Shown in pieces: positions 600 to 35,217 of a stretch of 38,804 bases of DNA; the stretch's first letter is position 1, and each line of letters opens with the position of its first letter. The stretch covers positions 1 through 38,804 of the forward strand of contig JBKHVI010000024.1 of assembly GCA_046570105.1 (NCBI GenBank), given 5' to 3'. Made by a program: the position numbers and the translations under genes. Below the pieces are notes generated by a model, which had not been told where the DNA came from, made no database searches, and was given only the letters and a program-made list of their open reading frames with translations. The stretch comes from Bacteriovoracia bacterium (GTDB taxonomy: Bacteria; Bdellovibrionota; Bacteriovoracia; Bacteriovoracales; Bacteriovoracaceae).

Positions 600-3197
600 T
601 TATTCGTCTTCAAAGGCTTCTGGATCAAACCCCTTATCTCCAAATAATTTTTCCATACCTGTTGTTTGGTATCGGTTTGATAAGATATCGAAGATATTTG
701 ACGATTTATCATCATTGATATCATTCATATTGTACTCAAAATTAGCTTCTGCCATGTTAGCTTCTTCCTTCACTTCGACAGGAGAAGTGTTGCCAGTCGC
801 ATTGAAATCATCCAACGAGAAGTTGTCGGCTGCAGATTGATTGGTTACCCCATTGAGTGGAGAAGCAGGATTGTACAAAGAATCGTTTAAGGATTTTAAA
901 ACATCTTTTGGATCAGCTTTACCTAATCCATCTAATGCTGGAGCACTGGCGCCAAAACCAGCAAAACCTGTCGTGGGATATGTGTTACCATTTAAACGAC
1001 CCTTTGAAATACTGGCCAGCTGTCGATCTAAATGATTTTTTAGCTTACCAACATTATTTCGGGCCTTTTCTATATTCGTTTTTGCTTTTGGATTTTTAGC
1101 CAGAATCACGTCTTTGATATTGGCAATCCTCGATGCAAAAAGCCCTGTATTGAAATTACTAACCTCAGCAGCATCAAGCGCACCACTCATTAATCCATTT
1201 GCCATATCCTGTGCTGGCATAATCGAGTTGATAAGACTCGGAGGCATTTTGGAAGATGTTAGACCTACTGACATACATGTCTTGGTCGCCACGCAGCTAC
1301 AACCCATATCAAGGGAGGATTTTGACATACAAATTTTCGATTTATTCGTGGTGCTATTCGCTAGGTTTTTGGAGTTAAGATTCGGTTTGCCTCCAAAAAG
1401 ATTTTTACAGACATCAGATTTTGATCGAGCAGGGTTGAGTTCTCCCGATTCGCCATAGCAGTAACAACTTGGATTGGTGTGGTCATCGCGATTACTGCAA
1501 CCAAATTCTGTTCCCGCGGCGGTCACCTGTGTCTTTAATTTTTCAATAGCTGATTGTCGACTTTTTGCCACATCGGCTTGCTTATCGTAATGATCTAAAG
1601 TGGCCTTACTATAGGCGGCCATGAGACCTCCCATAACAAGTCTAGTGTAGGGTGAAGCGAAAAACTTTACGATACCTCCGTAAACAGGAGCGGTGGCGAC
1701 TTTAGTCGCTTCTTCAATCTTTAATTTAAACTCTTTGAGAGGTGGAATTTCCGGCAAAAGCTTAAGAGATTTAAGAGATTCAAGGGCTATCGGAGTAATG
1801 GGAATCATCGAGGCGACTGCCACCTCGGCCACTCTTTTAGGAACTTCCAGAACCATAATCTTAGCAGTACATTTCTTTTCTAGATACTTCGCACATTTGC
1901 TTCTACTGTCTTCCGCCCTGGTAGCAGATTTTGCGCCAAACTTTCCATTCATGGCATCCACCGAACTGATTTTTCCACCAATTGCTCCAGCCTTGGCCCC
2001 CACGCATGATTTCAAGTCTTCAATACCGAAGTCACAATTTTTATAATTAAAAGTCATTTGTGAACCAGTCTGACCTGGCTTCTCGCAGTCACATTTGACT
2101 CCGGTCGCACCTTTTATTCTTGTTTCGTATGCTGCACTCGCTTGAGCAAATGCTTTAGGGAAAAGCATTTGATCCATCAGACCATTGAAAGCTTTTAAGC
2201 TCGAACCTAATGGCGATTTATCTGCTATAACATTCAGGTATCTATCATATTCATCAAAATTAATTGCATAGATATCGCTATTGCGCATTTTCATTGTGAA
2301 ACTGATCTGAAAAAGAAGCTCTTCAGCGCTGGTGGGATTGAAATGATAGGCCGATTTTTTATCTAGCTCCACTAGCCATGTCTCATAGGTCACTTTGTTC
2401 ATGTTTTCAAAATAATCAACTAAATATTGATCACGTGCCTCTAGACTAGGAAGAGCGTTCTGTGGATGAGTCGCATAGAGGTTTTTGCATTCAGTAAATA
2501 AAGAGCCTCCCCATGCCGTAGATGCAATTTCAAAAGCTGATAGTGCCGTTGAGGCGGTATAGGCCACAAATGCGGCCGTGTACCATCCTTTTTTAGCCTT
2601 TGCTATTTCTGCAATAAGACTTTGCTGATCGGCCATAACTTGAAAGGCCTGCGCCTGAATATCTGTCGCACTGGCCTGTTCGTTAGATTTTTTTGCATCC
2701 TCTTCAATCGTCTGGAAACGTTTTTTCATGTCATCAAGCTTGCCGCTGTACTGAATAGAGGTCCAGATTTCACCTAGGGCCGCGACGATGGCGCCACCAC
2801 CAAGAGCGTAAAGCGAGTAGGCTTGATTACAGTCTGCACTTTCCTGTGAGCTAAGAAGGACAACAGCTGCTCCACCAAGTGCAAACCCATTTAAAGCCAG
2901 TGACCAAATCTTATTTCCAGCAAAATTTCCTTTACCAACATTTTTACTGATTTCTCCAGAAGCTTCTTTTTCCGCCACCGCATTTTGAGCGGCCTGCTCA
3001 AAACATTGATTACGGGCCGTGCCTTCTTGTTGCATACAGGCCGCTTCGCTTTGTTTTACACGAGAGGCTGCTTCAGTTGTTAAACAACGGTTCAACTGAG
3101 GACTAAAACTTAGTCCAGTTGGACATCCCGTTTCAGCGTTTAATGTCAGTGGTATCAATAACAAGAGGACTAATTTTTTCATCACTTTAGAATCCAT
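600..3197 (-). CDS. Large secreted Cys-rich hypothetical protein with several hydrophobic helices (865 aa)
   Basis: Long ORF with signal peptide MKKLVLLLLIPLTLNA, many Cys pairs, 4 hydrophobic segments and C-terminal DINxDxxxNIFDILSNRY motif. Confidence 0.85.
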   Translation of the reverse strand: MDSKVMKKLVLLLLIPLTLNAETGCPTGLSFSPQLNRCLTTEAASRVKQSEAACMQQEGTARNQCFEQAAQNAVAEKEASGEISKNVGKGNFAGNKIWSLALNGFALGGAAVVLLSSQESADCNQAYSLYALGGGAIVAALGEIWTSIQYSGKLDDMKKRFQTIEEDAKKSNEQASATDIQAQAFQVMADQQSLIAEIAKAKKGWYTAAFVAYTASTALSAFEIASTAWGGSLFTECKNLYATHPQNALPSLEARDQYLVDYFENMNKVTYETWLVELDKKSAYHFNPTSAEELLFQISFTMKMRNSDIYAINFDEYDRYLNVIADKSPLGSSLKAFNGLMDQMLFPKAFAQASAAYETRIKGATGVKCDCEKPGQTGSQMTFNYKNCDFGIEDLKSCVGAKAGAIGGKISSVDAMNGKFGAKSATRAEDSRSKCAKYLEKKCTAKIMVLEVPKRVAEVAVASMIPITPIALESLKSLKLLPEIPPLKEFKLKIEEATKVATAPVYGGIVKFFASPYTRLVMGGLMAAYSKATLDHYDKQADVAKSRQSAIEKLKTQVTAAGTEFGCSNRDDHTNPSCYCYGESGELNPARSKSDVCKNLFGGKPNLNSKNLANSTTNKSKICMSKSSLDMGCSCVATKTCMSVGLTSSKMPPSLINSIMPAQDMANGLMSGALDAAEVSNFNTGLFASRIANIKDVILAKNPKAKTNIEKARNNVGKLKNHLDRQLASISKGRLNGNTYPTTGFAGFGASAPALDGLGKADPKDVLKSLNDSLYNPASPLNGVTNQSAADNFSLDDFNATGNTSPVEVKEEANMAEANFEYNMNDINDDKSSNIFDILSNRYQTTGMEKLFGDKGFDPEAFEDE

Positions 3198-11301: not shown

Positions 11302-13974
11302 ATGGCGAAAAAGGTATATGAACTAGCGAGCGAACTCGGCATCGGGGCGATCGACCTAGTCGAAAAACTTAAGACTTTGGGAATGAACGTGCGTAACCAC
11401 ATGGTGGCACTCTCAGACGACGAAGTCGCGAAAGCAGTTGCTGCTTTTGATACTTCGAAACAATCCGCTGCACCGGTTAAGAAAACGGTCGTTAAGAAAG
11501 TTGTTAAGAAGAGTGCCGCGGCAGCCGCCGCCGCCGAGCCTGCACCTGAGCCAGTGGAAGCGGCTCCCGTTGCACCGGTAGCTACTCCAGAGCCAGTTGA
11601 AGCAGCTCCAGTTGCTCAGACCCCAGTGGTCGAAGCAGCTCCAGTTGACGCTACTGAGGCTGATGAAGATGGCAAACCACGTGGCTTAACGGTTAAGCGT
11701 AAAACGAAACAGCAAAAAGAAGACGAGAAGAAAGCTGAAGCAGAAGCCAAAGAAGCCGCCGCTCACGCAGCAGCGATTGCAGCAGCTGAAGCTGAAATCC
11801 GTCGTGAAGAGGCTGCCACTGGTGTGGTTAAGCCGAATCAGAAAAAAGAGTATCTTGAAGAAAAGATGCACTCTTTCACACCGATCTTTGTGCCTGAGAA
11901 AAAAGAAGCTGGATCAACAGCTGCCACTCGTCAGCAAAGCTTGGCACCTGCTGCCATAGGCACTGAAGAGGAAGAGGACGAAAAGTCGAAGAAACGCATG
12001 GGCGATCTTGCCGCCATGGTTTCTAAGAAAGGTGCTGCTAAGACCAAAGACCTTACCATGATGCGTGCCGATGAAGAGTTGAAGTTCGCTTCAGCTTTGG
12101 TTGGTCGAACCATCTATACTCCAGCCAAACGGAAAAAAGTGTTTTCAGGTCCAACGCAAAATACTCTTATAACTCAAGTGAAAGACTCTAAGCGCTTTAT
12201 TACCATGCACGGAGTTTGTACCGCCGAAGATTTGGCGCAAAAACTCTCAATTCGTTTCGAAGCCTTGGCCAACAAAGTTCTTGAGATCAATTTGCTCGTA
12301 AAGCCTGATGATTATATCGGCGTGAAACTGGCAGAAGAAATTGCGGCTCTTTGGCACTACCGTGTTGAAGATGTTGCCTTCAATGAAGACAAAGTCATTG
12401 GTAAGGTCGCGGTTGAGGACAAATCTCATCTGCCACTTCGCAGTCCAGTGATTACGATCATGGGTCACGTTGACCACGGTAAAACGTCACTATTGGATTA
12501 TATCCGTAAAGCAAAAGTCGCTTCAGGTGAAGCCGGCGGTATCACTCAGCATATCGGCGCTTACCAAGTGAAAGTCAAAGAAGGTGTTTTGACCTTCCTC
12601 GATACTCCAGGTCACGCGGCTTTCGCAAATATGCGTCAGCGTGGTGCTGATGTAACTGATATTGTCGTTCTTGTGGTTGCTGCTGATGACGGTGTTATGC
12701 CTCAGACAGTGGAATCAATTAAGTTCTGCCAAAACGCTAAGAAACCAATGATCGTTGCGATTAACAAAATGGATAAGCCAGGCGCGAATCCAGACAAAGT
12801 GAAGCAAGGATTAATGGAATTCGGTCTCACTCCTGAAGAGTGGGGTGGTGAGACAATCTATGTTCCAGTTTCAGCACTTAAAGGTGACGGCATCGACACA
12901 TTACTCGAAAACATCCAACTTCAAGCTGAAGTGATGGAGCTCAGAGAAGATAGCAAAGGCCCAGCCGAAGGAATTGTGATCGAATCAAAAATTGAAACAG
13001 GTCGCGGACCGGTTGCAACTGTCTTGATTCAAAAAGGAACGCTCAACAAGGGTGATTCAATTGTAGTTGGTGAGACCTCTGGTCGCGCCCGCTCTTTGAT
13101 GGATTTCCAAGGTAAGATGCTTGATGCTGCTGGCCCTTCAACGCCGATCCAGGTTTTGGGTCTCGATGAAGTTCCTATTCCGGGCGATATCGTTAACGTC
13201 GTGAAGAACGAACGTGAAGCGAAGAAGATCTCTGAAAACCGTATCAACGAGCGCAAGCTCTTGGCGGGTACGAAAGAAGTTAAGAAAGCTTCCTTGGAAG
13301 ACTTCTTTGCGGAAGCCTCAAATAACTCTGAAGCTGAGAAGAAAGTTCTTAACCTTATCGTTCGTACCGATGTTCAAGGTAGCTACGAAGCCATCAAAAA
13401 CGCTGTTGAGCGCCTAGGTAATACTGAAGTCTCAGTTCAAGTGATTGGCGGTGGTGTCGGTGCAATTACAGATAATGATGTATTAATGGCATCGTCGATT
13501 AAGGGCTACATCGTTGGCTTTAATATGCGCCCAGTAACAACAGCACGTCGTATTGCTGAAGAGAAAGGTGTTGATATCAAGACCTACTCAATCATTTACG
13601 AAGTGATTAACGACATTACTTTGGCGCTTGAAGGGATGCTCACGCCTGAGAAGATCGAAGTTTACATCGGACGTGCTCAAGTCCGTGATACTTTCAATAT
13701 TCCTAAAATCGGCGTAGTCGCTGGTGCGGGTGTGATTGACGGTAAGATCGAACGTGGTTGCAGCATTCGTTTGTTGCGTGACGGGAAGATCGTTTACGAC
13801 GGCAAGCTTTCAACACTGAAGCGCTTCAAAGACGAAGTGAAAGAAGTGAAGAACGGTTTCGAATGTGGTTTGGGACTTGAGAACTTCAATGACGTGCGCG
13901 TGGATGATGTGGTGGAAGCTTACATCATGGAAACTCGTCGCCGTACTCTTGAAGCTACCCAAGCGACACTTTAA
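11302..13974 (+). CDS. infB: Translation initiation factor IF-2
   Basis: MGHVDHGKTSLLD, GGITQHIGAY, DTPGH, NKMD, GFECG motifs. Confidence 0.99.
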   Translation: MAKKVYELASELGIGAIDLVEKLKTLGMNVRNHMVALSDDEVAKAVAAFDTSKQSAAPVKKTVVKKVVKKSAAAAAAAEPAPEPVEAAPVAPVATPEPVEAAPVAQTPVVEAAPVDATEADEDGKPRGLTVKRKTKQQKEDEKKAEAEAKEAAAHAAAIAAAEAEIRREEAATGVVKPNQKKEYLEEKMHSFTPIFVPEKKEAGSTAATRQQSLAPAAIGTEEEEDEKSKKRMGDLAAMVSKKGAAKTKDLTMMRADEELKFASALVGRTIYTPAKRKKVFSGPTQNTLITQVKDSKRFITMHGVCTAEDLAQKLSIRFEALANKVLEINLLVKPDDYIGVKLAEEIAALWHYRVEDVAFNEDKVIGKVAVEDKSHLPLRSPVITIMGHVDHGKTSLLDYIRKAKVASGEAGGITQHIGAYQVKVKEGVLTFLDTPGHAAFANMRQRGADVTDIVVLVVAADDGVMPQTVESIKFCQNAKKPMIVAINKMDKPGANPDKVKQGLMEFGLTPEEWGGETIYVPVSALKGDGIDTLLENIQLQAEVMELREDSKGPAEGIVIESKIETGRGPVATVLIQKGTLNKGDSIVVGETSGRARSLMDFQGKMLDAAGPSTPIQVLGLDEVPIPGDIVNVVKNEREAKKISENRINERKLLAGTKEVKKASLEDFFAEASNNSEAEKKVLNLIVRTDVQGSYEAIKNAVERLGNTEVSVQVIGGGVGAITDNDVLMASSIKGYIVGFNMRPVTTARRIAEEKGVDIKTYSIIYEVINDITLALEGMLTPEKIEVYIGRAQVRDTFNIPKIGVVAGAGVIDGKIERGCSIRLLRDGKIVYDGKLSTLKRFKDEVKEVKNGFECGLGLENFNDVRVDDVVEAYIMETRRRTLEATQATL
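11545..11649 (+). repeat. Imperfect coding tandem repeat (PEPVEAAPVA-like x3) in the IF-2 N-terminal linker
   Basis: Three similar copies of ccagt(g/t)-gaagc(a/g)gctcc(a/c)gttg. Confidence 0.7.
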
Positions 13975-24739: not shown

Positions 24740-24771
24740 AAGGGCCGGCTTTATGCCGGCCCTTTTTTTTT
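24740..24771 (+). terminator. Intrinsic terminator after fkpA
   Basis: AAGGGCCGGC-TTTAT-GCCGGCCC followed by T9. Confidence 0.9.
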
Positions 24772-24785
24772 GTGCTGAAGGATCT

Positions 24786-25253
24786 ATGCTGCTACTAAAA
24801 AAAATGAGTGAAGAAGCTTACGAGCGTTTCACTGCTCTCTCGATGAAAGATTTTGCTGAGGCCAAAGCACGTGCTGAGCGATTAAGTCTCGAAGAGGGAC
24901 AAAAAATCGCTGAGTCGGCCTGGAAATCGCTCTTGCCGCAAGGACAAGTTACAGAATTACATCATTTCTTTAGCGCATTCAGAGACAACATCGAAGTCGG
25001 CATGCTCTGGTTTAAAGAAGAGCGTAACTGGGAAACACCTTACGGCTATCTCTATCAAGTCTGGATTTGGGATGAGTTTCAAGGGCAGGGACTTGGTAGA
25101 GAGTTGATGAAAGCTCTCGAAACTGAGCTACTGTCTCGCGGGCTAAAGCGTTTACGTCTACACGTTTTTTCTTTCAACGAGCGCGCCGTGAAACTCTATG
25201 AGTCGATGGGGTTTGAAACGACGAATTTAGTGATGGTGAAAGAGCTCAAATGA
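24786..25253 (+). CDS. GNAT family N-acetyltransferase
   Basis: FQGQGLG acetyl-CoA motif and LHVFSFNERAVKLYESMGF. Confidence 0.9.
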   Translation: MLLLKKMSEEAYERFTALSMKDFAEAKARAERLSLEEGQKIAESAWKSLLPQGQVTELHHFFSAFRDNIEVGMLWFKEERNWETPYGYLYQVWIWDEFQGQGLGRELMKALETELLSRGLKRLRLHVFSFNERAVKLYESMGFETTNLVMVKELK

Positions 25254-25976
25254 TTAGTGAAGATCCAATAGATAATTAAAGATAGTATTGCCTGGTGAAA
25301 GTTGTGCCAAGTGAGAAACAAACTGACGCAGTATTTGATCCTCTTTTATTTTAATTCTTAGACCTTCTAATTCACTGACTCCGCCAATCCCAATTCCTTG
25401 TAATAGAACTCGTGTTAACAGCGGATTGATTGAATCCGTTTTATTCAACAAGACAAGGATCGGTTCTGCGACTGCTCTCCCGTTTTGATCAATAAGCACC
25501 TGTAGACCTGAAAGATAGCTTGTTTCAAAAGACTGCAGGCTTTGAAAATGAAATGGAATAAGTTCAAAAAGATCTGCTCTTCCATGCCGAGCGATTTCTA
25601 TAAAAAGATTTGCGATTAATGTAGAGGGCTCATTTTCAATATAGAGTATTAATTCTTGAATCGAGAGTTGATCGAATGATATTTGTTCAAAGCGAGGATC
25701 ACGATAAAGAAGGCGAAGTTTAATTCCCTCATTATGAAGTGTGAGAGTGATTAGTTTTTGAGGCAGCTGAGGGGAGTGTGCCTGAAGACGCCACAAAGGA
25801 GTTGCAGGTTTAATGGGGAGGAACACTTCGAAATTATTGTCTTTAGAAAAGTGTACAGTCTTTTGATAGGTTAGCTCGTTTATCTGGATTTCAAAATCGT
25901 ATGGGCGCTGAGCCACGGCTAACGAACAATAAAGACCCAAAAGTGTGATTAATAGAAGACGCATAGATCTAACCAT
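25254..25976 (-). CDS. Secreted hypothetical protein, divergent from the putative toxin operon
   Basis: Signal peptide MRLLLITLLGLYCSLAVA (alternative start 25964); beta-rich N-terminal half and helical C-terminal half. Confidence 0.7.
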   Translation of the reverse strand: MVRSMRLLLITLLGLYCSLAVAQRPYDFEIQINELTYQKTVHFSKDNNFEVFLPIKPATPLWRLQAHSPQLPQKLITLTLHNEGIKLRLLYRDPRFEQISFDQLSIQELILYIENEPSTLIANLFIEIARHGRADLFELIPFHFQSLQSFETSYLSGLQVLIDQNGRAVAEPILVLLNKTDSINPLLTRVLLQGIGIGGVSELEGLRIKIKEDQILRQFVSHLAQLSPGNTIFNYLLDLH

Positions 25977-26060
25977 ACTCCATCTCTATTAGGAGACTTA
26001 GGAGTATGGAAATATTACAGAATTGGCCCTCTTCATTTCTGCCCCCCCTATACTTCCTTC

Positions 26061-28517
26061 ATGACAAAGATTCTTGCTATTTTAAGCCTATGGTTGGTGG
26101 TCACTCATTCCTATGCAATGAGTTCGAATGATGCGCTTTTTATAGCGCTTGCTAATTGCGATCTAGCTCAAGCTGAGCATCATTTAAAAAATGGTGCAGA
26201 TTCCAATGCTCTTTGGAGAAATGAACTTGTTGGCGAAACAAGGATGTATTTGACTGAAGGTTCACCCGTATTGGTATTTGCCGTTTATAAACAATGCTTT
26301 GAGCTACCAACAACTTTCGAAAACATTGAAAGAAATGTTATTTCAGCACGAGAACATGGGAAAAAAGCCATTTCGTTACTCATGAAATATGGAGCTAAAG
26401 CGGAACAGCTCTTTACTGATTATGATGGTCAAAAGATACCTGTTTTGCATGCCATTTTTAAGTCAGACATTGCAAGCATGTACGGTAGTGACTACTTCTT
26501 TCATATGGTGAGAGAGGGGGCAGAACCAAAAACAAGAAATGAGTTTGGAAATACTGTGCTGAAGTATGACTCGTTTTATCGTGATGAAGAAGAGCTAAAA
26601 AAGTATCTCTTACTTGGGCTTAGTTTTTTTGACACCGATTACCAGGGCCACTCACATATTGATCGATTGTTTACATTTGGGTTTTCTGATAGTTTTCTTG
26701 ATTGGTTATTCGGCCAATTAATACAAGAGTCTAAGAAACTGACGGACTTTACCTATATTCATAGCGAGTATGCTCACCCACTAAAATCCCATTTTGCGAT
26801 GCTTCTAAATCGGACGTATGAGCCAGAGGCTAAGCCGACTTATGATCAAAGTACTAAGCGTTTTAAGGATCGCGTATTACCATTTTTTAAATCAATTAGA
26901 AATTTTCCTTCTGGCCCACAAAGCCGTCCAATTCTGGCCGAGTGGATAATGCTGGCTTGCCCCACGGTGGAAATGAATGGTTTGATAAGCTTTAATTATA
27001 AACCGGGTGGATATCCATATCATTCTCCAACTCAGGCGAAGTATTTAGAAAAGAATTATCACCTTCTATTAGAATTGATTTCGACTCAGGATTTTGATTT
27101 AACCCAAGCTGATTCCGAAGGAAGAGATATCCTAACATATGCTCTCAATCTCTGCCCTTTTGAGGTAGTCCAAGCGTTAGTTAAAAAAGATGCAGGATTG
27201 ATCAAAAGAGAACATACCAGTGAGCTGCTAAAAAACTATGCGGGACTTAGTAAAAGCATAGGAACCATCGCGTTTTTAAACAATGATCATCGCACACTTG
27301 AATATCTAAAGAGTCTTGGCTTGCAGATAGATCAGATTAATTTTGCATCCTTAGGAGTAACAAATAATCTAATTCTCAAACAATCTGCGGTCAAACCTTG
27401 GCGAGAATTAAATTCTGTTGGTCTTAATATTAAAACTGGGGCTGCGTTTAATCTTAAAACAGTACATGCTGTAAAAAAGTTCACCGACATCAAGCGTACT
27501 GTAATAAATCTAAGTAGCACAACACCTCGAGCGATTCATCGCTTTAACGGAGTGTCCTTGGGTGTCTATGCGGCTGCGACTCCTATTTCTACAATGAGTA
27601 GAGGTCTAAGAGTCTTTCCTAATCACACGGCCATTGAGTATGAAGTAAAAAATGGACTTCTAACTGTTAAATTCAAAGGGGGATTCGAGCATCAATCCCA
27701 AGTTTCCTTAACTGAAGTCTCTTCCTCTGGGAGTGGCGTCCTCATAATTGAGGAAACACGAACTCAGGCGGCAGATCAGTTAGAGTATACGTTCTATGAT
27801 CAGCTCAGCCTTCTTAAGGGAGTTGAGCAAGATATTTCAAAAAACAATGCGCCTCAACTTTATTTGGATACCAAGCTAAGATATCAATCGTTTGGCTCTG
27901 TTCAGGATTGTTCACTCAGCATATGTGAAGCTTTGGTGATTAGAAAACAAGGAGACAGGACTTTCGTTAAAATTGATAGCGAGAAACTCAAGCGCACAGA
28001 TGTAACCATCGCAATGCTTTGGGATTATATCAACTCTTCACCGCGTGAAAAAAGGGATTTTCTCAAAGATTTATTGCAGAGGCCGGTCCCTCAATTTCTC
28101 GCATTTGTACCGGCATTGATGGAAGCCCCGATGAACTCTGATAAAACGGAAGAACTCAAGTTACTTTATGAAGTACTTTTTCAGCAGCAGATAGTAGGTC
28201 GCCTTAATTATGACATCAACTCAATCTCCGAAGTGATGAAGCAATTTGAGCTGTTGAATCCTAAGATCGAATTATTTGTAAGCATCCGTCATGACATTTT
28301 GTCTGGACGTCTTCAGTCGAAGACATATGACTTGCTGAAGCAGGATATTTTTGAACTTAGAGATTTCATTCTTTGGACAAAAACCGTGCGGGCCACGGGC
28401 AAATACGAACAAATTATTAATACGATCAAAAATCAAATTAAAAATGATCTAAATCAAATCGGTTCCACTTTAGGCCTGAGCAACGAAGAGATCGACGAAC
28501 TAAGAAGGCTATTATGA
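26061..28517 (+). CDS. Secreted ankyrin-repeat protein (818 aa), gene 1 of the putative toxin operon
   Basis: Signal peptide ..SYA; ankyrin-like units (LFIAL..CD...AEHHLKNGADSN; LLMKYGA; GAEPKTRNEFGNTVL; ADSEGRDILTYA). Confidence 0.8.
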   Translation: MTKILAILSLWLVVTHSYAMSSNDALFIALANCDLAQAEHHLKNGADSNALWRNELVGETRMYLTEGSPVLVFAVYKQCFELPTTFENIERNVISAREHGKKAISLLMKYGAKAEQLFTDYDGQKIPVLHAIFKSDIASMYGSDYFFHMVREGAEPKTRNEFGNTVLKYDSFYRDEEELKKYLLLGLSFFDTDYQGHSHIDRLFTFGFSDSFLDWLFGQLIQESKKLTDFTYIHSEYAHPLKSHFAMLLNRTYEPEAKPTYDQSTKRFKDRVLPFFKSIRNFPSGPQSRPILAEWIMLACPTVEMNGLISFNYKPGGYPYHSPTQAKYLEKNYHLLLELISTQDFDLTQADSEGRDILTYALNLCPFEVVQALVKKDAGLIKREHTSELLKNYAGLSKSIGTIAFLNNDHRTLEYLKSLGLQIDQINFASLGVTNNLILKQSAVKPWRELNSVGLNIKTGAAFNLKTVHAVKKFTDIKRTVINLSSTTPRAIHRFNGVSLGVYAAATPISTMSRGLRVFPNHTAIEYEVKNGLLTVKFKGGFEHQSQVSLTEVSSSGSGVLIIEETRTQAADQLEYTFYDQLSLLKGVEQDISKNNAPQLYLDTKLRYQSFGSVQDCSLSICEALVIRKQGDRTFVKIDSEKLKRTDVTIAMLWDYINSSPREKRDFLKDLLQRPVPQFLAFVPALMEAPMNSDKTEELKLLYEVLFQQQIVGRLNYDINSISEVMKQFELLNPKIELFVSIRHDILSGRLQSKTYDLLKQDIFELRDFILWTKTVRATGKYEQIINTIKNQIKNDLNQIGSTLGLSNEEIDELRRLL

Positions 28518-29359
28518 AAATCCTATTCTTGCTGGTTTTACTTTCTTCATGTGGAAAGAAAGCGAGTGATTCTACTTCAGGTCTAGTTTCGATTGACTCA
28601 GTGTCTGAAGCCGATGTGGGCCTCATAAATATCAAACTCAGTGAGGAGAGAAAAATCTGCGACCTCAGCAGTCCCAATGCAAGCTTGTTGACCGTTTTGG
28701 AAAAAAACTTATTTTCCTTAAGTGAGAAAGTAGAAAGCTATCGTCTTAATAATGAGCTAGATCGGCTAAGGATAGAAGAAAAACGTGACCACTTAGCTTA
28801 TTTAATGAAGGAGAGATTAATTGACCCCAATGTGTTGGATATAAAAAAGCTCGAAGCTTGGGAAAAGAATGTGCAAGTAATCCTCGAGCGCGACTTCTTT
28901 CAAAGAGATGAAGCAAAATGTTTCGAAAAAATTCGTTCAGAGATGCGTTCGTCTAGATTTCTCGAAGTGCTTCGGCACAGTGTTGGTTTCAGTGTTTTTC
29001 TTAGCAAAGAAATGGGTACGCTAAAAACGGAATTATATGAAGCTTATAGATTTCTTGTCGTTGGCCAGTTGCTTGATCTTAAAAACTTGTTGATTGATAT
29101 TCAAGAAAATCGCCCAGGAAGCAATCACGATCAAAAGATAGCAAGTTTGCTGAGAGAGTTATTGATGCACTCTAAGAAACATGGAGTGATAGTATCACCA
29201 GGACTCGCAACTGCAATAGTCGACATAAATACGACATATCTCAAGGACGCTGCTGATTTTGTCAGCAATATCCAGCCTCGAGGGAGCGTCTATGCTCGCT
29301 TTTCTTTCGTAGAGTCACTAAGAAAAATTAATAAGCTACTAACAGCGGACAGCTTATGA
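28514..29359 (+). CDS. Lipoprotein, alpha-helical, gene 2
   Basis: MKILFLLVLLSSC lipobox; ATGA overlap. Confidence 0.82.
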   Translation: MKILFLLVLLSSCGKKASDSTSGLVSIDSVSEADVGLINIKLSEERKICDLSSPNASLLTVLEKNLFSLSEKVESYRLNNELDRLRIEEKRDHLAYLMKERLIDPNVLDIKKLEAWEKNVQVILERDFFQRDEAKCFEKIRSEMRSSRFLEVLRHSVGFSVFLSKEMGTLKTELYEAYRFLVVGQLLDLKNLLIDIQENRPGSNHDQKIASLLRELLMHSKKHGVIVSPGLATAIVDINTTYLKDAADFVSNIQPRGSVYARFSFVESLRKINKLLTADSL

Positions 29360-31092
29360 TTTTTACTCGAATTATTGCTGCACTCATTTTAACAATAGAT
29401 ATAAGTTTCGCTGTAGAGATCGAATATCAAGGTCGCATTAATATTGCGGAATATCAGGCGAAAACGGTTCGACATTCTTGGTGTATTTTTTCGGACGGAA
29501 ACTCAAGCGTCGATACGTCTGTTTTGTCCCGGCATGCCAGCGGGTCGAATAATTCTCATTACGAAAACTATTCTCACCGTGGGACGTCCTATCTAAAAAG
29601 AAAAGTTGAATGGACGAATACGAAAGATGAAAACTCAATCAACTTACACTTTACAGCAGACAGTGCTCAATTCTCGGCTCATCAAGAATATGACAAGAAA
29701 ACCTGTAGCTATAAAACATGGAAAGGACAAAGTACGTCAGCCGAAACGATTCTCAAGGCAAAGGCAGCCTTTGTTATTCCGAAAAATGTTTGGGCAATTA
29801 AAATTAGCTCTAACCAAGAACATCTACAAGGCCAGCTTGCGATAAACCTAAGCAATAATGAGTATATCATCGATGAAAGTGGCGAAGAAAAACTCTTGGC
29901 AAGGTCATTTCATCAATTCTCCAGTTCTCAAAATGAGAGATACTTTCAGGTAAACCCGTCTTTTGATGGTGGCGAAAATTTTGTTTATTTGGACATGATT
30001 TATAAGTCGCGTACACTCGTGGCACAGGAATTTTTACTAGATTTCAAAGTCGAATTTATCGCAAACGAACAATGCCTAACTGAATTAAAAGGAAGGCATT
30101 TCGCGGATCTACTTACTCAGCAAATTAAGTCCAACGAGCTTGAAAGTACTTTGATTAATTTTGCTTGCATGATGAATACGGACTATGTTCAACACGTATT
30201 GGGTCAATTACACCTTCATGGAACAAACGATTTATTTAGCAAGATTGCTCAAGTTGAGAACTCGGCTATCAAATCGATTCGTGAGTCGAGCAATGCAAAT
30301 GATCGTGAGAAATTAGCCTTGATTCTCAAACTTTCTGAACGTATGCGTTTTTACTACGCTTATGAGATTCTTAAGGAAACGATGGGGATGCTTGTTGAAC
30401 AAGTCGATCATAATGGACAAAGTGTTGATGCATGGATGTACCTTGAATTACTGCGCAGAAGGGGAGTGCTCTATCTTGCCGAGGTGTTGGAGCATCTGTC
30501 CTTGGCAGGAAAGCAGCAACTGGCACAAAATTCTGGCCCAGTTATTACCTTTAGCCATTCAGATCGTCTGAAGCATGAAGTCTTTTTTCAAAGTATTTTG
30601 CCCATGGAGTTTAATAGCTTTAAAAAGGCAAACGAATTAATTTTTAAACCCCTATTTCTGTCGGCAGACTATTTTTATCACTTACAGAGATCTATTGAAC
30701 GTATTAGCACATTGAGTACTTACTTCATTACGACATATGGGACACAGCTCACTCAGAGCATAACGAGAGCAACCTTAGAGAAGATGAATGACGACATCAT
30801 GTCGATAGCTAAAGAATTGAGACTTTATTCTCAAGAAGTGGAAGTTTTTAAAATTACACAATTAACAGATGCACCTCAGGATTGGGTGCAGGCAAGACGA
30901 TTACTCTTGCAGCAAATGGAGCTAGTATTCCAAATGAATCTAGCTAGCCTTTCGACAGAAGTAGGGACGTATTTTAAGCGGCATTTCGAAGATCCCATCT
31001 TCAAAGAAATAAGGATAAAAGGTAAGCGGTATGAAAATGCTGAGCATTTCTTGAAAGATTTTGAGCAACTTATACGGGAGGTTCGTTTATGA
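29356..31092 (+). CDS. Secreted hypothetical protein (578 aa; beta-rich N-terminus, helical C-terminus), gene 3
   Basis: Signal peptide ..ISFA; ATGA overlap. Confidence 0.8.
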   Translation: MIFTRIIAALILTIDISFAVEIEYQGRINIAEYQAKTVRHSWCIFSDGNSSVDTSVLSRHASGSNNSHYENYSHRGTSYLKRKVEWTNTKDENSINLHFTADSAQFSAHQEYDKKTCSYKTWKGQSTSAETILKAKAAFVIPKNVWAIKISSNQEHLQGQLAINLSNNEYIIDESGEEKLLARSFHQFSSSQNERYFQVNPSFDGGENFVYLDMIYKSRTLVAQEFLLDFKVEFIANEQCLTELKGRHFADLLTQQIKSNELESTLINFACMMNTDYVQHVLGQLHLHGTNDLFSKIAQVENSAIKSIRESSNANDREKLALILKLSERMRFYYAYEILKETMGMLVEQVDHNGQSVDAWMYLELLRRRGVLYLAEVLEHLSLAGKQQLAQNSGPVITFSHSDRLKHEVFFQSILPMEFNSFKKANELIFKPLFLSADYFYHLQRSIERISTLSTYFITTYGTQLTQSITRATLEKMNDDIMSIAKELRLYSQEVEVFKITQLTDAPQDWVQARRLLLQQMELVFQMNLASLSTEVGTYFKRHFEDPIFKEIRIKGKRYENAEHFLKDFEQLIREVRL

Positions 31093-32501
31093 AGCCTATC
31101 CTTTTATTTGCTATCATCTTCATTAAACTTACTACGACTTCTTTGGCAAATCCTGCGAATGAGATCAAGAAGTATGCTAAAGAAATTGAAACGACTCAAA
31201 AAGATATAGCCGCCGTGTTGGTGCTTCAGAACTTTTCACGATTTATGATTGATGCTAGTTCTGCTAATAACATCGATCAATCATTGAATTATATTCTTTC
31301 TGCAGATAACACGCAGGGATTGAGCCAGTTATCTGAGTCATTCTTTGATACGATCTATGCAGATTCAACAAACGCAGAAAAAATCAATGATATCTCTAAA
31401 ATTCTCATTCAAGTTCGAGCCGCCCGGCATAGTTGGTTTGCCTTAGGGGCAAAAACGAAAAGGATATATGAGGATTTTTATTCAAATGTCGCCAATATTT
31501 CTGATGTATGTAGTGATGAGAGCTTTTTAAAGTCCATGGCAGTAGTTGAAAGTTTCACGCCGGCCGGTGTTAATACAGGGAGTTTAAGGTTGGCATGGGA
31601 TCTTCAGGTGGGTGGCAGTACGAGTTTCAGCGAAGGGGGAGGCATTAGTTTTGGTGGTTATGCAAACTTAGACAGAAACGATGATCGTTCTAATTCTGTA
31701 AACGCTCGTCGAGCTGCGGCAACGACCGCTGGCGCACTCGCTTTGCAGTTTACACCACCTCCTTACAATATCGCTGCAGCCATTTTGCTTCCTATCGCCA
31801 TTGAAGTCGTCTGGGGTGTCGTCGACATGAAGAAGAATATGAATGAAATGAAGCAAATTGCTGAGGCCAATGGCGAGCTATATGCGACAATGAGATTCGA
31901 GGTAAATGTTAAGAAGCATTATAAACAGCTTTGTTCTCAGTTTCAGCAGGCCTACTCAGAAATTCAGCCAGTAATCAAACAGGCCTTTGATTCAAAAAAT
32001 TATCAGTTAATCTATGATTTAAAAAAAGATCTTCCGGTCTTTAAAGAAGAAGACAGTGCTAGAATCGTAGAGGAATTCTATGAGTTTAGTCGTTCGAAAT
32101 TAGTTCAGGATGCCGCAGTGATCGCTGAAGCGGATCAGGCATATGCCGCTAATTGGACTATCGTAAATAAGAGGATCGACGATTTTATCCTAAATATAGA
32201 TTTAGCGCTGACTCAAATTATTGCTGCCCAATATACTGATTTGGATTCAAGTCGAGGGCAACATTTTGCTGAGATTCTTGCTCGGGTTGATTCATTGTCT
32301 TCTTTCAAGAAGGGTTTTACAGACGGACTATTGAAGTACTTTGATTTCGTCGAAGTCGATGAAAGAGAGGATCAATTGCAAGAATTGAAATGGATGATAG
32401 AGCATTATGAATTAGCCCATCCGGCTTTGAATCAAGAAGAGATTCAAGTATTAATCACATACATTGATGTTATTGCCAAGCTTGGTGCACATCATGAATA
32501 A
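31089..32501 (+). CDS. Secreted coiled-coil protein with central hydrophobic hairpin (alpha-pore-forming-toxin-like), gene 4
   Basis: Signal peptide ..SLA; AAATTAGALALQFTPPPYNIAAAILLPIAIEVVWGVV flanked by amphipathic helices; ATGA overlap. Confidence 0.75.
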   Translation: MKPILLFAIIFIKLTTTSLANPANEIKKYAKEIETTQKDIAAVLVLQNFSRFMIDASSANNIDQSLNYILSADNTQGLSQLSESFFDTIYADSTNAEKINDISKILIQVRAARHSWFALGAKTKRIYEDFYSNVANISDVCSDESFLKSMAVVESFTPAGVNTGSLRLAWDLQVGGSTSFSEGGGISFGGYANLDRNDDRSNSVNARRAAATTAGALALQFTPPPYNIAAAILLPIAIEVVWGVVDMKKNMNEMKQIAEANGELYATMRFEVNVKKHYKQLCSQFQQAYSEIQPVIKQAFDSKNYQLIYDLKKDLPVFKEEDSARIVEEFYEFSRSKLVQDAAVIAEADQAYAANWTIVNKRIDDFILNIDLALTQIIAAQYTDLDSSRGQHFAEILARVDSLSSFKKGFTDGLLKYFDFVEVDEREDQLQELKWMIEHYELAHPALNQEEIQVLITYIDVIAKLGAHHE

Positions 32502-34014
32502 ACTGTGGATTCTTCTACTATCCCTGTCATGGAGTTTCTTGGCCCATTCTCAGATTTCGTTGAGCTTTCAATTAAATATTGGGGAACAAAGAGGAACAAT
32601 AAGTCTAGCTGAAGATGGCAGTGTAAGACTTGATGGGCATAATTTTGATCACACGTTAATGCAATCGATCCATAATTCAGTTCAAGGGCTGAGGGTTCAT
32701 CAGAGTTCTGTCTACCAAGCTCAGCGAATAATAACTGAAAGAATTTTATCCCAAGTGAATTCTCGTGTTGAAGTAAAATTTGACTATCGGGCCTCACAGG
32801 CTAATCCCTTTATCCGCAAACAAAGTGAAGAAAATAGAGTCTTTCAGCGCAACCTCTCTACTAACATTTTTCGGCCTTCTTTTGAATCTGAGCTTCTCAA
32901 ATCTCAAGTATCGTTTGATGTATCAGTACCTAAAGAGCGGGAGGCCCTCCAGCTTTATCGCAAGGCGAATCAGGCCGCTTATGCTCAGCTAGGAGCCAAC
33001 GATGAGTATCGACAAGCTGTGTTTGCCAAACAGTCGATTGAGATTGGACAAGCGTATAGAGCAAAACTCGATGAGCAAGATACTGATGCCTTAGTAAGCC
33101 TTGCCTCAGGTGTATTAGAAAATAATATGACAACCGTGATTGAATCCATGAAATGGCTCAATCGCAGTCTTGATTTTCAAAAAGGCTTTGCTGTTTCAAT
33201 TGCTAATAATTTTAATCCCGCAAGTTTTTTATATCCTCTTGATGCTCACTGCTCCACGAGCTGGTGTGAGGCCGGCGAACTAGTAGGGAACGCGACTTCA
33301 GTTCTAATTGGCGCATTCGAATTTATGAAGGGTGTTGCTCTTTCTTCCGGAGGAGGAGCTTTAACATTGGCAGCTGTTAGCGCAACGGGCGTTAGCGGAG
33401 GCTTTAGCACGCTTGCTTTACCTGCGACTGCCGGAGCCACTTTGGCAGGTATTGCAATGGCAGGGCACGGCCTTGGTGTTGCTGGTAATGCTTTTAATAA
33501 TCTATTCCGCGAAGCCGAGACTCCTCACAACATTAAGCAAGCTGACGAATCAGAGGGGTTTATAAAAGAAACTGGCCTCACTAACGATAAGAAGCAAGAG
33601 CTGGCGAAAAATTCAAGTTATGAGGTGGCCAAAGATTTTTATCGAACACTTAAAGATACTGGCATTGAGTCACAAAATAAAAAGGACTTGCTAAGATCTT
33701 TTGATTTAAAAACCATCAAGACGCGCGTGCTTGATGAAGATATAATTGTTCATAGATGGCATAATAATGATGTCGGCTCTCCATCTCACGGAAGATTTGT
33801 TAGCATTGATAAAATTCAAAACAGGGAAGAAGCTCGGCGAATTTTAGCTCTGCCAGAAAGTAACCAAATGATTTATCTGGATAGTTTCATTCTTAAGAAA
33901 GGTACAAAGGTATATGAGGGAGTCGTTTCTCCATTGAATAATCACGCGGGAGGCGGAAGACAAATATTTATTATCGGTGATGTCTTAGAACAGCTAGTAA
34001 GGATATCTCAATGA
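32494..34014 (+). CDS. Secreted polymorphic toxin with Gly-rich TM region and C-terminal TNT/Tse6-like (NADase/ART-fold) domain, gene 5
   Basis: Signal peptide MNKLWILLLSLSWSFLAHS (8-bp overlap start); GGG..ATGV..P..G..HG hydrophobic segment; C-terminus SF..L.ED..VHR...GRFVS...RRILALP..N...KGTKVYEG.VSP....GGGRQIFI. Confidence 0.72.
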   Translation: MNKLWILLLSLSWSFLAHSQISLSFQLNIGEQRGTISLAEDGSVRLDGHNFDHTLMQSIHNSVQGLRVHQSSVYQAQRIITERILSQVNSRVEVKFDYRASQANPFIRKQSEENRVFQRNLSTNIFRPSFESELLKSQVSFDVSVPKEREALQLYRKANQAAYAQLGANDEYRQAVFAKQSIEIGQAYRAKLDEQDTDALVSLASGVLENNMTTVIESMKWLNRSLDFQKGFAVSIANNFNPASFLYPLDAHCSTSWCEAGELVGNATSVLIGAFEFMKGVALSSGGGALTLAAVSATGVSGGFSTLALPATAGATLAGIAMAGHGLGVAGNAFNNLFREAETPHNIKQADESEGFIKETGLTNDKKQELAKNSSYEVAKDFYRTLKDTGIESQNKKDLLRSFDLKTIKTRVLDEDIIVHRWHNNDVGSPSHGRFVSIDKIQNREEARRILALPESNQMIYLDSFILKKGTKVYEGVVSPLNNHAGGGRQIFIIGDVLEQLVRISQ

Positions 34015-34271
34015 CTATAGATGAAGTAATCGCAAAATTGCATGAAATGAATATCTCATCGGCTGATTATGATGGAAAAAGTGCGGATGTAAAGAATCAG
34101 GTTAGAATGTTCGTTGCTGCTTGCGTTAAAGAATTTGAAATGATTAAGACAGGTAATAAATTTTCGAATAACTTAATGAAATCAATGATTGATTCTCTAA
34201 ATTGGAATTCAGAACTTTTTTCTCTAATTGTGAGTTTTAAAAAAGAGCATCCAGAGCATTTTGAGTCGTGA
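34011..34271 (+). CDS. Small cytoplasmic protein, candidate immunity protein (86 aa), gene 6
   Basis: ATGA-coupled directly after the toxin domain; no signal peptide; last gene before the terminator. Confidence 0.62.
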   Translation: MTIDEVIAKLHEMNISSADYDGKSADVKNQVRMFVAACVKEFEMIKTGNKFSNNLMKSMIDSLNWNSELFSLIVSFKKEHPEHFES

Positions 34272-34276
34272 AATAA

Positions 34277-34300
34277 AAAAGGCTCCTTTCGGAGCCTTTT
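34277..34300. terminator. Bidirectional intrinsic terminator
   Basis: AAAAGGCTCC-TTTC-GGAGCCTTTT between convergent genes. Confidence 0.88.
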
Positions 34301-34323: not shown

Positions 34324-35217
34324 TTAGTTAGCTACTGGCTTCAACCAGCAAAGTGGGCGGATACCTGAGGTGTGACCTGTTGAAAGGTTACAAGTTCCGG
34401 CCTTCTCGTCTGTGTCACTGACGTTGTCGTTTTCAGAAACTTCACAGAGTGCGCCTTGGAAGTAGGTGTCCAAGCGGCACTGGTAAGCAGGGTGGTTGTG
34501 ATCTGTTGAAGAGACAACACGTGGATCTGGAGTATCGAACTTTGGCTCAACAGTGGCGTTGCGAAGAGCTTGGAAGAGTTTTGATACTGACATTCCTGCC
34601 ATACCGCCACGGATACAGATATTTTGGTCATCTGTGCTGGTGTAAGCAGTAGAACATGAAGTTCTAAGAGTCTCTGGAATATCCATTGAAGCAATGACTG
34701 CAGCGTTGTCTTCAGAGATGAAGACTTTGCGCAAACACTTCAAAGTCGCGAAGTAATCAGATTGGCCTTCATTTGAAGCCCAAGTGATTCCACCCCACCA
34801 GCCGCCGCCTTTCTTAGGAGCGCCGCCAATGTGGTGACCGATTTCGTGACAAACAACAAGAGCGAAACCGTCTTCAGTAATAGTAGCGTGACGTGCAAGA
34901 CCGCCGAACATAGCAACGTTCCAGGTGTTACCAGAGCGTGAAGCATATGCATTCACAGTTCCGTCTTCCCAGTTGCGCTGAACATTCAATGTGGCGCCCA
35001 TGCTTGAGATAATTGGAGCGTAGACAGCAGAAACCTTGTCGATCACTTCATTGAACTTCTCTTCCGAGATACCAGTCTTTAGGCCTTTGATGTTCGCTGG
35101 GATGAACATATCGTTTTCTGGTGCAATTCCTTCTGTACCATCTTCAGTACAGGCGTAGCCATTCGTAGCTACAGAAAGTGCGAGTACCATCGCGAACATT
35201 TTTGCTGTAAGTTTCAT
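34324..35217 (-). CDS. Secreted Cys-rich zinc metallopeptidase (M48-like), paralog of 19900-20556
   Basis: Signal peptide; VNAYAS, CHEIGHHIGG, EGQSDY, QCRLDTY, RPLCW; GGAGGA SD. Confidence 0.88.
   Translation of the reverse strand: MKLTAKMFAMVLALSVATNGYACTEDGTEGIAPENDMFIPANIKGLKTGISEEKFNEVIDKVSAVYAPIISSMGATLNVQRNWEDGTVNAYASRSGNTWNVAMFGGLARHATITEDGFALVVCHEIGHHIGGAPKKGGGWWGGITWASNEGQSDYFATLKCLRKVFISEDNAAVIASMDIPETLRTSCSTAYTSTDDQNICIRGGMAGMSVSKLFQALRNATVEPKFDTPDPRVVSSTDHNHPAYQCRLDTYFQGALCEVSENDNVSDTDEKAGTCNLSTGHTSGIRPLCWLKPVAN

Follow-up and report, generated by a model that had tools for sequence, protein, structure and literature searches.

A 38,804-nucleotide stretch of DNA from a Bacteriovoracia bacterium (contig JBKHVI010000024.1 of assembly GCA_046570105.1; the whole stretch is referred to as the window) carries a seven-gene island encoding a polymorphic toxin system whose multi-protein, Sec-exported scaffold is undescribed. 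The locus is considered to be a polymorphic toxin system that moves horizontally and brings along a Sec-exported scaffold of its own for delivery, a reading given a probability of roughly 0.8. At the level of sequence, comparison of related loci establishes a core of gene 3, gene 4, a toxin gene and a small downstream gene, together with swapped toxin tips, variable accessory genes and insertion of the whole as an island; the toxin-immunity logic is strongly supported, and a delivery role for the scaffold is suggested by its linkage to the toxin across two distant clades.

The island contains six plus-strand open reading frames (ORFs), each start overlapping the preceding stop by 4 or 8 nt; ATGA overlaps lie at 28514, 29356, 31089 and 34011, and the 8-nt overlap of genes 4 and 5 (ATGAATAA) lies at 32494. 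Gene 3 (29356..31092) encodes a secreted core protein of 578 amino acids (aa) and gene 4 (31089..32501) a second one of 470 aa. Gene 5 (32494-34014; 506 aa in full) consists of an N-terminal trafficking region (residues 1-350, 32494..33543), with a signal peptide and a helical core at ~113-350, and a C-terminal toxin domain (33544..34014) that resembles TNT/Tne-type NAD(P)+ glycohydrolases; gene 6 (34011..34271) encodes an 86 aa cytoplasmic protein predicted to be the cognate immunity protein. The six-gene layout, lengths and overlap positions agree with those given by a first-pass annotation of the window for 26061..34300; that interval missed a seventh, divergent secreted gene (gene 0) at 25254-25976 on the minus strand. 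Genes 1-5 have signal-peptide-like N-termini and gene 6 has none, and gene 2 carries the single lipobox (LSSC), as had also been described; these features were called by eye and by regular expression rather than by a predictor, and a hydropathy test flagged only genes 1, 3 and 4 among genes 1-5. None of genes 1-6 scores above a Pfam or NCBIfam cut-off (Pfam scans covered 37 ORFs of the window and NCBIfam scans 8), the scaffold genes having no family match in either, and the six genes have no paralogues in their own 3.0-Mb, 88% complete genome. The guanine-plus-cytosine (GC) content is 39-40% in genes 1-4, 38% in the gene 5 tip and 31% in gene 6, compared with a genome value of 44.6% and a range of 45-48% in nine neighbouring genes.

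Gene order and exchangeable toxin tips

Gene 4 is rare; it has 18 other clusters at 50% identity among 1.84 billion representatives, and by profile it is found in 4 of 400 genomes sampled across the phylum, 4 of 236 other genomes of its own family, 7 of 182 genomes of a second family and none of 10 genomes of its own genus, these whole-genome profile searches covering one phylum. Plasmids and viral contigs gave no match; the sole match in a scan of genome contigs (L018) was rejected as an Rhs protein matching only a Gly/Ala stretch. Thirteen gene 4 loci besides the window fall into two clades, each with a support of 99 in a quick version of the gene 4 tree. In all 11 loci with upstream DNA gene 4 is immediately preceded by gene 3 (L012 and L030 begin inside gene 4), and a large signal-peptide toxin gene follows gene 4 in 11 of the 12 loci with downstream DNA (L017 ends inside gene 4); in every locus with DNA to be seen the toxin N-terminus is accompanied by gene 4 or a gene 4 remnant. 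Gene order and overlap are kept across the two clades at only 12-18% gene 4 identity; the homologues are thus syntenic rather than scattered. In L013, an additional toxin and small gene appear by eye to lie behind a broken gene 4 end.

The flanking accessory genes differ between the clades. In clade A they are gene 0, the ankyrin gene 1 (in L005, L014 and L029) and usually gene 2; in clade B an unrelated secreted protein of 365-407 aa replaces gene 1 and a lipoprotein is present. Judged by sequence, the core is confined to genes 3, 4, the toxin and the immunity gene, and the remaining genes are accessory. The first-pass annotation had expected genes 1-4 and the gene 5 N-terminus to stay syntenic while the gene 5 C-terminus and gene 6 are exchanged; this is borne out, with the refinement that L014 has no gene 2 and that clade B has another protein in place of gene 1. 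Its proposal that the upstream proteins form a dedicated delivery apparatus gains support from the two-clade linkage.

The N-terminus of gene 5 is conserved in its core (~113-350), with a C253/C258 pair and a Gly/Ala-rich stretch; it is 34-49% identical across clade A toxins with differing C-termini and matches neither a common Pfam family nor a PDB entry. In five toxins bearing other tips, identity to gene 5 falls at residue ~350 from 36-60% to 12-24%. The ten clade A toxins divide into five C-terminal groups with no mutual BLAST match between groups: TNT-like tips (the window, P0007, P0008, L012, L030 and, distantly, P0009), an Ntox43 tip (L029a; 53 bits, cut-off 25), a TreTu-like tip (L029b; 19 bits, below the cut-off of 27) and two tips without a family match (L005 and L014). 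Clade B carries RES tips, above cut-off in L033 and L035 and related in L031 and P0046, and a further tip without a family match (L015, P0042-P0045). Exchange is seen in L029, where two toxins with N-termini 78% identical and unrelated tips surround one gene 3-4 pair, along with an orphan tip-like ORF of 84 aa that has a small gene to itself. The C-terminus of gene 5 is thus variable, and the polymorphic toxin-immunity layout proposed earlier, a toxin C-terminus followed by a small gene, is borne out by tip swapping and by matching small genes.

A small gene follows the toxin in L005, L012, L013, L015, L029 (twice), L030, L031, L033 and L035; the contig of L016 ends with no small gene seen, and L034 is cut. 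These small genes are alike only where the tips are alike, and homologues of gene 6, which has no Pfam or NCBIfam immunity family match, follow TNT-like tips only (L030 at 38% identity; L006a, L006b and L012 linked directly or via L030). Orphan tip/immunity cassettes occur in L029 and L006, and gene 6 stands alone in a strain from a public sequencing run (X3, described below). Gene 6 very probably binds and blocks the gene 5 tip.

The window tip is likely an NADase, as judged from its residues and relatives. It retains R421, G433-x-F435-x-S437, R448 and GGGxQ490; the F435 position is F, Y or W across the alignment (A10) and Q490 is invariant, the alignment to Tne2 being by sequence only. A conserved aromatic residue and glutamine are features of TNT-type NADases (PMC10539506; statements on this source, and on PMC11062931, PMC13689555, PMC10792529, PMC9558359, PMC9825190 and PMC3482391, refer to the examined portions of those papers). 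Two close homologues, P0007 and P0008 (47-59% identical), score 27.7 and 37.8 bits with Pfam TNT; the window tip itself matches Tne2 at E 0.024.

The same TNT-like tip, 49% identical, is also found at L006:11706-16175 on an unrelated 1191-aa secreted protein, which makes a second carrier of polymorphic toxins, likewise undescribed, in the family; behind it come a small gene, an orphan tip and another small gene, with the small genes related as well. Candidates for new antibacterial toxin families are four domains, C-terminal or orphan, without a Pfam match (L005:6425-6970, L014:10744-11232, L015:11382-11963 and L029:6601-6855). Homology of the gene 5 N-terminus to gene 4 was considered (hhalign probability 52%, E 1.4e-4, 82 columns) and is retained as a hint only; reversed profiles scored 26, but the observed score of 40.9 was equalled by 1 of 40 local shuffles, which weakens it.

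L014 lacks gene 2 and has a GC content of 35% in a 42% flank; its neighbour FolD is closest to PDB entries 4a5o and 1b0a and is 45% identical to the FolD of the window's genome. We take 4a5o and 1b0a to be the Pseudomonas and E. coli enzymes; the GC contrast and FolD type together suggest transfer beyond the phylum, and the FolD also suggests a non-predatory host. In clade B, the source record of toxin P0042 names Bdellovibrio bacteriovorus W and labels the product a cell-wall-binding protein, which is a misannotation. This name, together with a Bacteriovoracaceae label on P0022, points to Bdellovibrionota as the host phylum.

Scaffold proteins and the proposed route to the target

Gene 3 is modeled by AlphaFold2 with a predicted local distance difference test score (pLDDT) of 83.5 and a predicted template modeling score (pTM) of 0.74, and features an N-terminal elongated β domain (~20-235) and a C-terminal helical bundle. 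It has no whole-protein structure match, and Foldseek returns nothing above a template modeling (TM) score of 0.15 by query. The helical bundle is closest by VIA to designed bundles (Z 11.4), followed by the ClyA pore (9.8), XaxA (9.7; 152 residues aligned at 4.5 Å, amid generic bundles) and YaxB (8.9); the β domain has no usable ESM Atlas match and resembles Bdellovibrio protein Bd1399 at Z 8.7. A marginal internal hydrophobic segment is present in 1 of 12 gene 3 sequences. Gene 4 is modeled less well (pLDDT 71, pTM 0.48) as a long helical bundle with a central β-hairpin (171-195, pLDDT there under 50) and a hydrophobic segment (~226-248); the segment is found in all 12 sequences tested, from both clades, and C141 and C282 are invariant. 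Gene 4 is a candidate membrane-inserting subunit. AhlB or MakE chains occupy nine of its ten top Foldseek rows (E 0.027-0.1), eight of them from two AhlB entries; by VIA the ClyA pore aligns at Z 9.4 (196 residues, 7.7 Å), ranking second in re-alignment and seventeenth in a wide search, and AhlB at Z 7.3 (150 residues, 3.8 Å), and the Atlas lead is Bacillus_HBL at 0.76. ClyA-family sequence profiles do not match gene 4, and genes 3 and 4 have no mutual homology; the ClyA-family likeness is a recurring lead and not membership.

The preferred reading of a scaffold-delivered toxin may be set out in steps of unequal strength. We consider it rather better than even that the products of genes 0-5 would be exported through the inner membrane by Sec, acquire disulfides once in the periplasm, and leave the cell or be displayed on it through a type II secretion system and the lipoprotein; a type II secretin, GspD, is encoded above cut-off in the 88% complete genome. 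At little beyond even odds, the products of genes 3 and 4 would assemble with the gene 5 N-terminus at the target cell, the accessory proteins and the gene 3 β domain recognizing the target and the gene 4 hydrophobic segment entering its membrane to pass the tip; we infer both complex formation and stoichiometry here, the first-pass annotation having drawn a stoichiometric complex from translational coupling. The tip would then cross to the target cytoplasm and consume NAD(P)+, which is likely, an ADP-ribosyltransferase of the same fold being the alternative; gene 6 would protect the producer and its kin. That genes 3 and 4 act as a multi-component α-pore like ClyA, Hbl or Ahl is tentative, and equally tentative is the proposal that they descend from ClyA/Hbl-type pores and now form a protein-translocating pore for exchangeable toxins, with the gene 5 N-terminus docking on or co-assembling with gene 4.

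A number of observations weigh against this picture. The gene 4 model is poor at residues 155-250, hairpin included; its Foldseek matches are not significant (E ≥ 0.027, TM ≤ 0.16), its ClyA-family VIA scores (Z 7-10) lie below those of generic helical bundles (up to 11), and an Atlas score of 0.76 can also be attained by shuffled proteins. No common Pfam family is shared by 22 gene 4 members, and the Bacillus_HBL profile finds nothing in this genome. The toxin N-termini of clades A and B have no detectable homology (probability 2.5%), the Gly/Ala stretch of the window gene 5 is below the hydropathy threshold, L016 has a toxin that ends without a recognizable tip, in L032 gene 4 is truncated and no toxin follows, and no small gene is present in the 81 bases 3' of the L014 toxin before the contig ends. 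The window tip scores 17.9 bits with Pfam TNT, below the cut-off of 27, and the tip profile reaches Tne2 only at E 0.16; given this score and the weak PDB matches, an NADase is likely at most.

Among other explanations, it is possible, if doubtful, that genes 0-4 form only a secreted targeting complex and that the toxin crosses by its own Gly/Ala-rich N-terminal hairpin, in the manner of colicins or of the helices of type VI secretion system (T6SS) effectors. Umbrella particles set a precedent (PMC11062931), the accessory genes diverge fast as specificity modules do, and the gene 5 stretch is conserved and is hydrophobic in 4 of 6 clade A toxins tested; however, the membrane-length hydrophobic segment of gene 4 is common to both clades (12/12) while their toxin N-termini are unrelated, and no lectin, ALF or trypsin family match was obtained.

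Within the delivery reading, the main targets are quite probably related or competing bacteria rather than ordinary prey; competition among relatives is favored because of the rarity of the system, the exchange of tips and the retention of a lone gene 6. Of the two uses suggested earlier, against prey or against competing predators, the patchy spread and orphan gene 6 speak for the competitor side and not for general prey killing. Release of the proteins into the prey periplasm after invasion, with gene 4 breaching the prey inner membrane, the tip shutting down the prey and gene 6 stopping self-intoxication only, would suit the fact that nearly all hosts of known placement belong to two families of one phylum, that one toxin is named from B. 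bacteriovorus W and that all parts are Sec-exported; the cause of prey death is still open (PMC13689555), and Bd1399, which the gene 3 β domain weakly resembles, is a predation protein (PMC10792529). Such a prey-killing role is nonetheless improbable, as the operon occurs in just 2-4% of the genomes of these families and in 0 of 10 congeners, its tip swaps, orphan cassettes and gene 6 kept without a toxin indicate an arms race among relatives, and the Pseudomonas/E. coli-type FolD beside L014 suggests a host that does not prey.

It is similarly unlikely that genes 2-4 serve to carry the toxin over the producer's own outer membrane, or to hold it on the surface for contact-dependent delivery, with no action of theirs at the target membrane; a lipoprotein is found in 9 of 10 assessable loci, and the long β strands of gene 3 draw secretins among weak Foldseek rows (TM ≤ 0.11 by query), but those secretins match at a root-mean-square deviation of 24-31 Å, the type II secretin is encoded elsewhere in the genome and L014 manages without the lipoprotein. 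Least probable is an arsenal island in which genes 3 and 4, given their weak ClyA-family resemblance, are an independent lytic pore toxin co-travelling with a standalone MafB-like toxin-immunity pair; the TNT-like tip does sit on a carrier without this scaffold in L006, but the conserved order and overlap described above, the lack of any gene 3-4 pair without a secreted toxin gene behind it save the broken L032 and the cut L017, and the presence of one small cytoplasmic gene per toxin with none dedicated to a pore argue against it.

Relation to described systems

The system, as a polymorphic toxin system with a dedicated scaffold, is closest in working to Maf, through Sec export and a lipoprotein, and to umbrella particles, through dedicated partners; the defining domains of both are missing. 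The Maf system of Neisseria (MafA-MafB-MafI; PMC5349182) shares a signal-peptide toxin with a lineage-restricted N-terminus and variable C-terminus, an immunity gene directly downstream, a lipoprotein upstream, a genomic island setting and orphan cassettes. It differs in its DUF1020 domain (PF06255), which is unmatched here by Pfam in gene 5, its homologues and 8 members of family A7, and in that two large conserved secreted core proteins plus accessories stand here between lipoprotein and toxin. Umbrella particles of Streptomyces (UmbA-D; PMC11062931) likewise have a secreted polymorphic toxin, co-encoded secreted partners and a downstream immunity gene; genes 0-5 and their homologues have no ALF repeats, trypsin-like or lectin domains by Pfam, the toxin carries a Sec-type rather than a Tat signal (by eye), the host is Gram-negative and the helical subunit is conserved and hydrophobic.

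The ClyA-family α-pore-forming toxins (AhlABC, Hbl, Nhe, SmhABC, MakABE and YaxAB/XaxAB; PMC9558359) resemble genes 3 and 4 in being long, helical and secreted products of adjacent genes, one of which has a β-hairpin and a hydrophobic segment at its centre, and through the recurrent, non-significant structure matches; they differ in that genes 3 and 4 lack mutual homology, and they are described as lytic on eukaryotic cells, without enzymatic cargo or an immunity gene, in the examined portion of that paper. The aromatic residue and glutamine, by alignment, and close homologues that pass the Pfam TNT cut-off relate the tip to TNT/Tne (PMC10539506) and TreTu (PMC9825190) toxins; the carrier here is Sec-exported and not Rhs, PAAR, LXG or CpnT. 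Polymorphic toxins exported by the type II/Sec route (Zhang et al. 2012, PMC3482391) have signal peptides, lineage-specific N-terminal domains and Ntox43 and RES tips in common with this system; Table 1 of that paper, in the portion examined, gives no signature neighborhood genes for the Sec route, in contrast to the conserved multi-gene scaffold here, and that portion makes no mention of Bdellovibrio or Bacteriovorax.

The absence of a T6SS, contact-dependent inhibition (CDI/TpsB), Rhs/YD, LXG, MuF or extracellular contractile injection (eCIS) scaffold, noted from the letters of the window, is upheld: the Pfam and NCBIfam scans found no VgrG, PAAR, YD repeats, TpsA/TpsB, LXG, MuF or sheath genes and no match to a described system, and VgrG (TIGR03361) has no match in the 88% complete genome. 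No description of the operon was found in the open literature, although large survey tables could list the proteins, and no polymorphic toxin system was found described for this phylum in the literature searched.

How Sec-exported polymorphic toxins enter the cytoplasm of a target is a question for MafB as well, and dedicated scaffolds of a new kind are seldom found. The present system has a core of two proteins, spans two clades with no fewer than seven types of tip, and comes with natural deletion variants. It suggests that predators may use toxin-immunity pairs against competitors, and it is directly testable because the record of a clade B toxin names a Bdellovibrio strain that is in culture. 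If gene 4 were a repurposed ClyA-like pore, it would link lytic α-pores to AB-type delivery; a ClyA-derived translocon would be an α-helical AB-type injection device for interbacterial warfare.

Island limits, accessory genes and neighboring features

The seven genes at 25254-34271 form a low-GC island missing from the same site in congeners; its limits are drawn from four congeners (G003, G006, G009 and G002) in which the flank genes adjoin with no island between them, while the closest genome (G007) has a contig break at the site and was left out of the empty-site comparison. To its left lies the FKBP-GNAT pair and to its right a convergent protease gene. A terminator-like bidirectional hairpin (34275..34300, by RNA fold) lies at the right edge; in congeners an equivalent hairpin separates the protease gene from GNAT or FKBP, in G003 within the ~80 bases from GNAT to the protease, and the hairpin therefore predates the island. 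The terminator said to close the operon does exist as a hairpin (34281-34296, -16.4 kcal/mol for a 42-mer); it is unlisted by a terminator scan and is ancestral to the site. No terminal repeats or target-site duplication are evident among the short repeats listed.

One public sequencing run contains the entire window in a single contig with no differences and may be its source; other runs contain deletion variants of the island. Run X3 has a strain near-identical in the flanks, with 7 differences over 1709 bases at depth 39, in which position 25250 is fused to 34011. Genes 0-5 are gone and gene 6 is kept, with 36 new letters that put an AGGA 7 bases upstream of the gene 6 start. This joint has just 30 letters on its shorter side, but its depth (39.3) matches the flank. 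The lone gene 6 fits the expectation for an immunity gene. A second X3 junction, from 25402 to 33423, is present in a minor contig (depth 3.9), and in run X4 25251 meets 34324, the empty site. In run X2, low-depth contigs over 32991-33770 differ by ~10% in gene 5 and by ~2% in genes 0-1, hinting at a toxin gene that changes faster, with mixed strains as the alternative.

Among the accessory genes, gene 0 (240 aa, secreted, divergently transcribed) has no Pfam or NCBIfam match; homologues lie beside the operon in L005 (E 8.9e-7), L014 (1.9e-16) and L030 (1.8e-39), in the last at the other end, downstream and convergent. Gene 1 (26061..28517, plus strand) encodes an 818 aa secreted protein whose N-terminal ankyrin repeats, proposed earlier, are confirmed for residues ~28-191 by profile A11, which reaches designed ankyrin proteins in the PDB at E 1e-15 (Pfam alone gives E 0.014); its three clade A homologues are 20-24% identical, and it has no homology to gene 3. 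Gene 2 (28514..29359, plus strand) is a fast-evolving 281 aa lipoprotein (LSS-C13); the lipobox gene found in this position in other loci was recognized by regular expression in eight and by eye in L034. The starts of genes 0 and 1 are 84 bases apart (25977-26060), with a run of seven C inside; a short ORF from 26006, preceded by AGGAG, is out of frame with gene 1, which has no obvious Shine-Dalgarno sequence. Promoter-like sites are at chance level (23 seen, 20.7 expected).

Other features lie near the related operons. In L015 a 923-aa lipoprotein (L015:755-3526), which matches no Pfam or NCBIfam family and contains a hydrophobic stretch rich in Gly, is encoded 660 bases upstream of the clade B operon and could be a further membrane-active component; in L029 a PIN-like gene and small partner (12784-13380) directly after the operon resemble a type II toxin-antitoxin pair by eye. 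In the window, the GNAT gene (24753-25253) is present, inverted or absent among congeners, which makes the FKBP-protease interval a variable insertion spot. The right-hand flanking gene (34324-35217, minus strand) encodes a secreted HExxH metalloprotease-like protein with 2-4 paralogues in each of 10 congeners searched, and an 865-aa ORF at 600-3197 on the minus strand has no Pfam match and a lower GC content of 42%.

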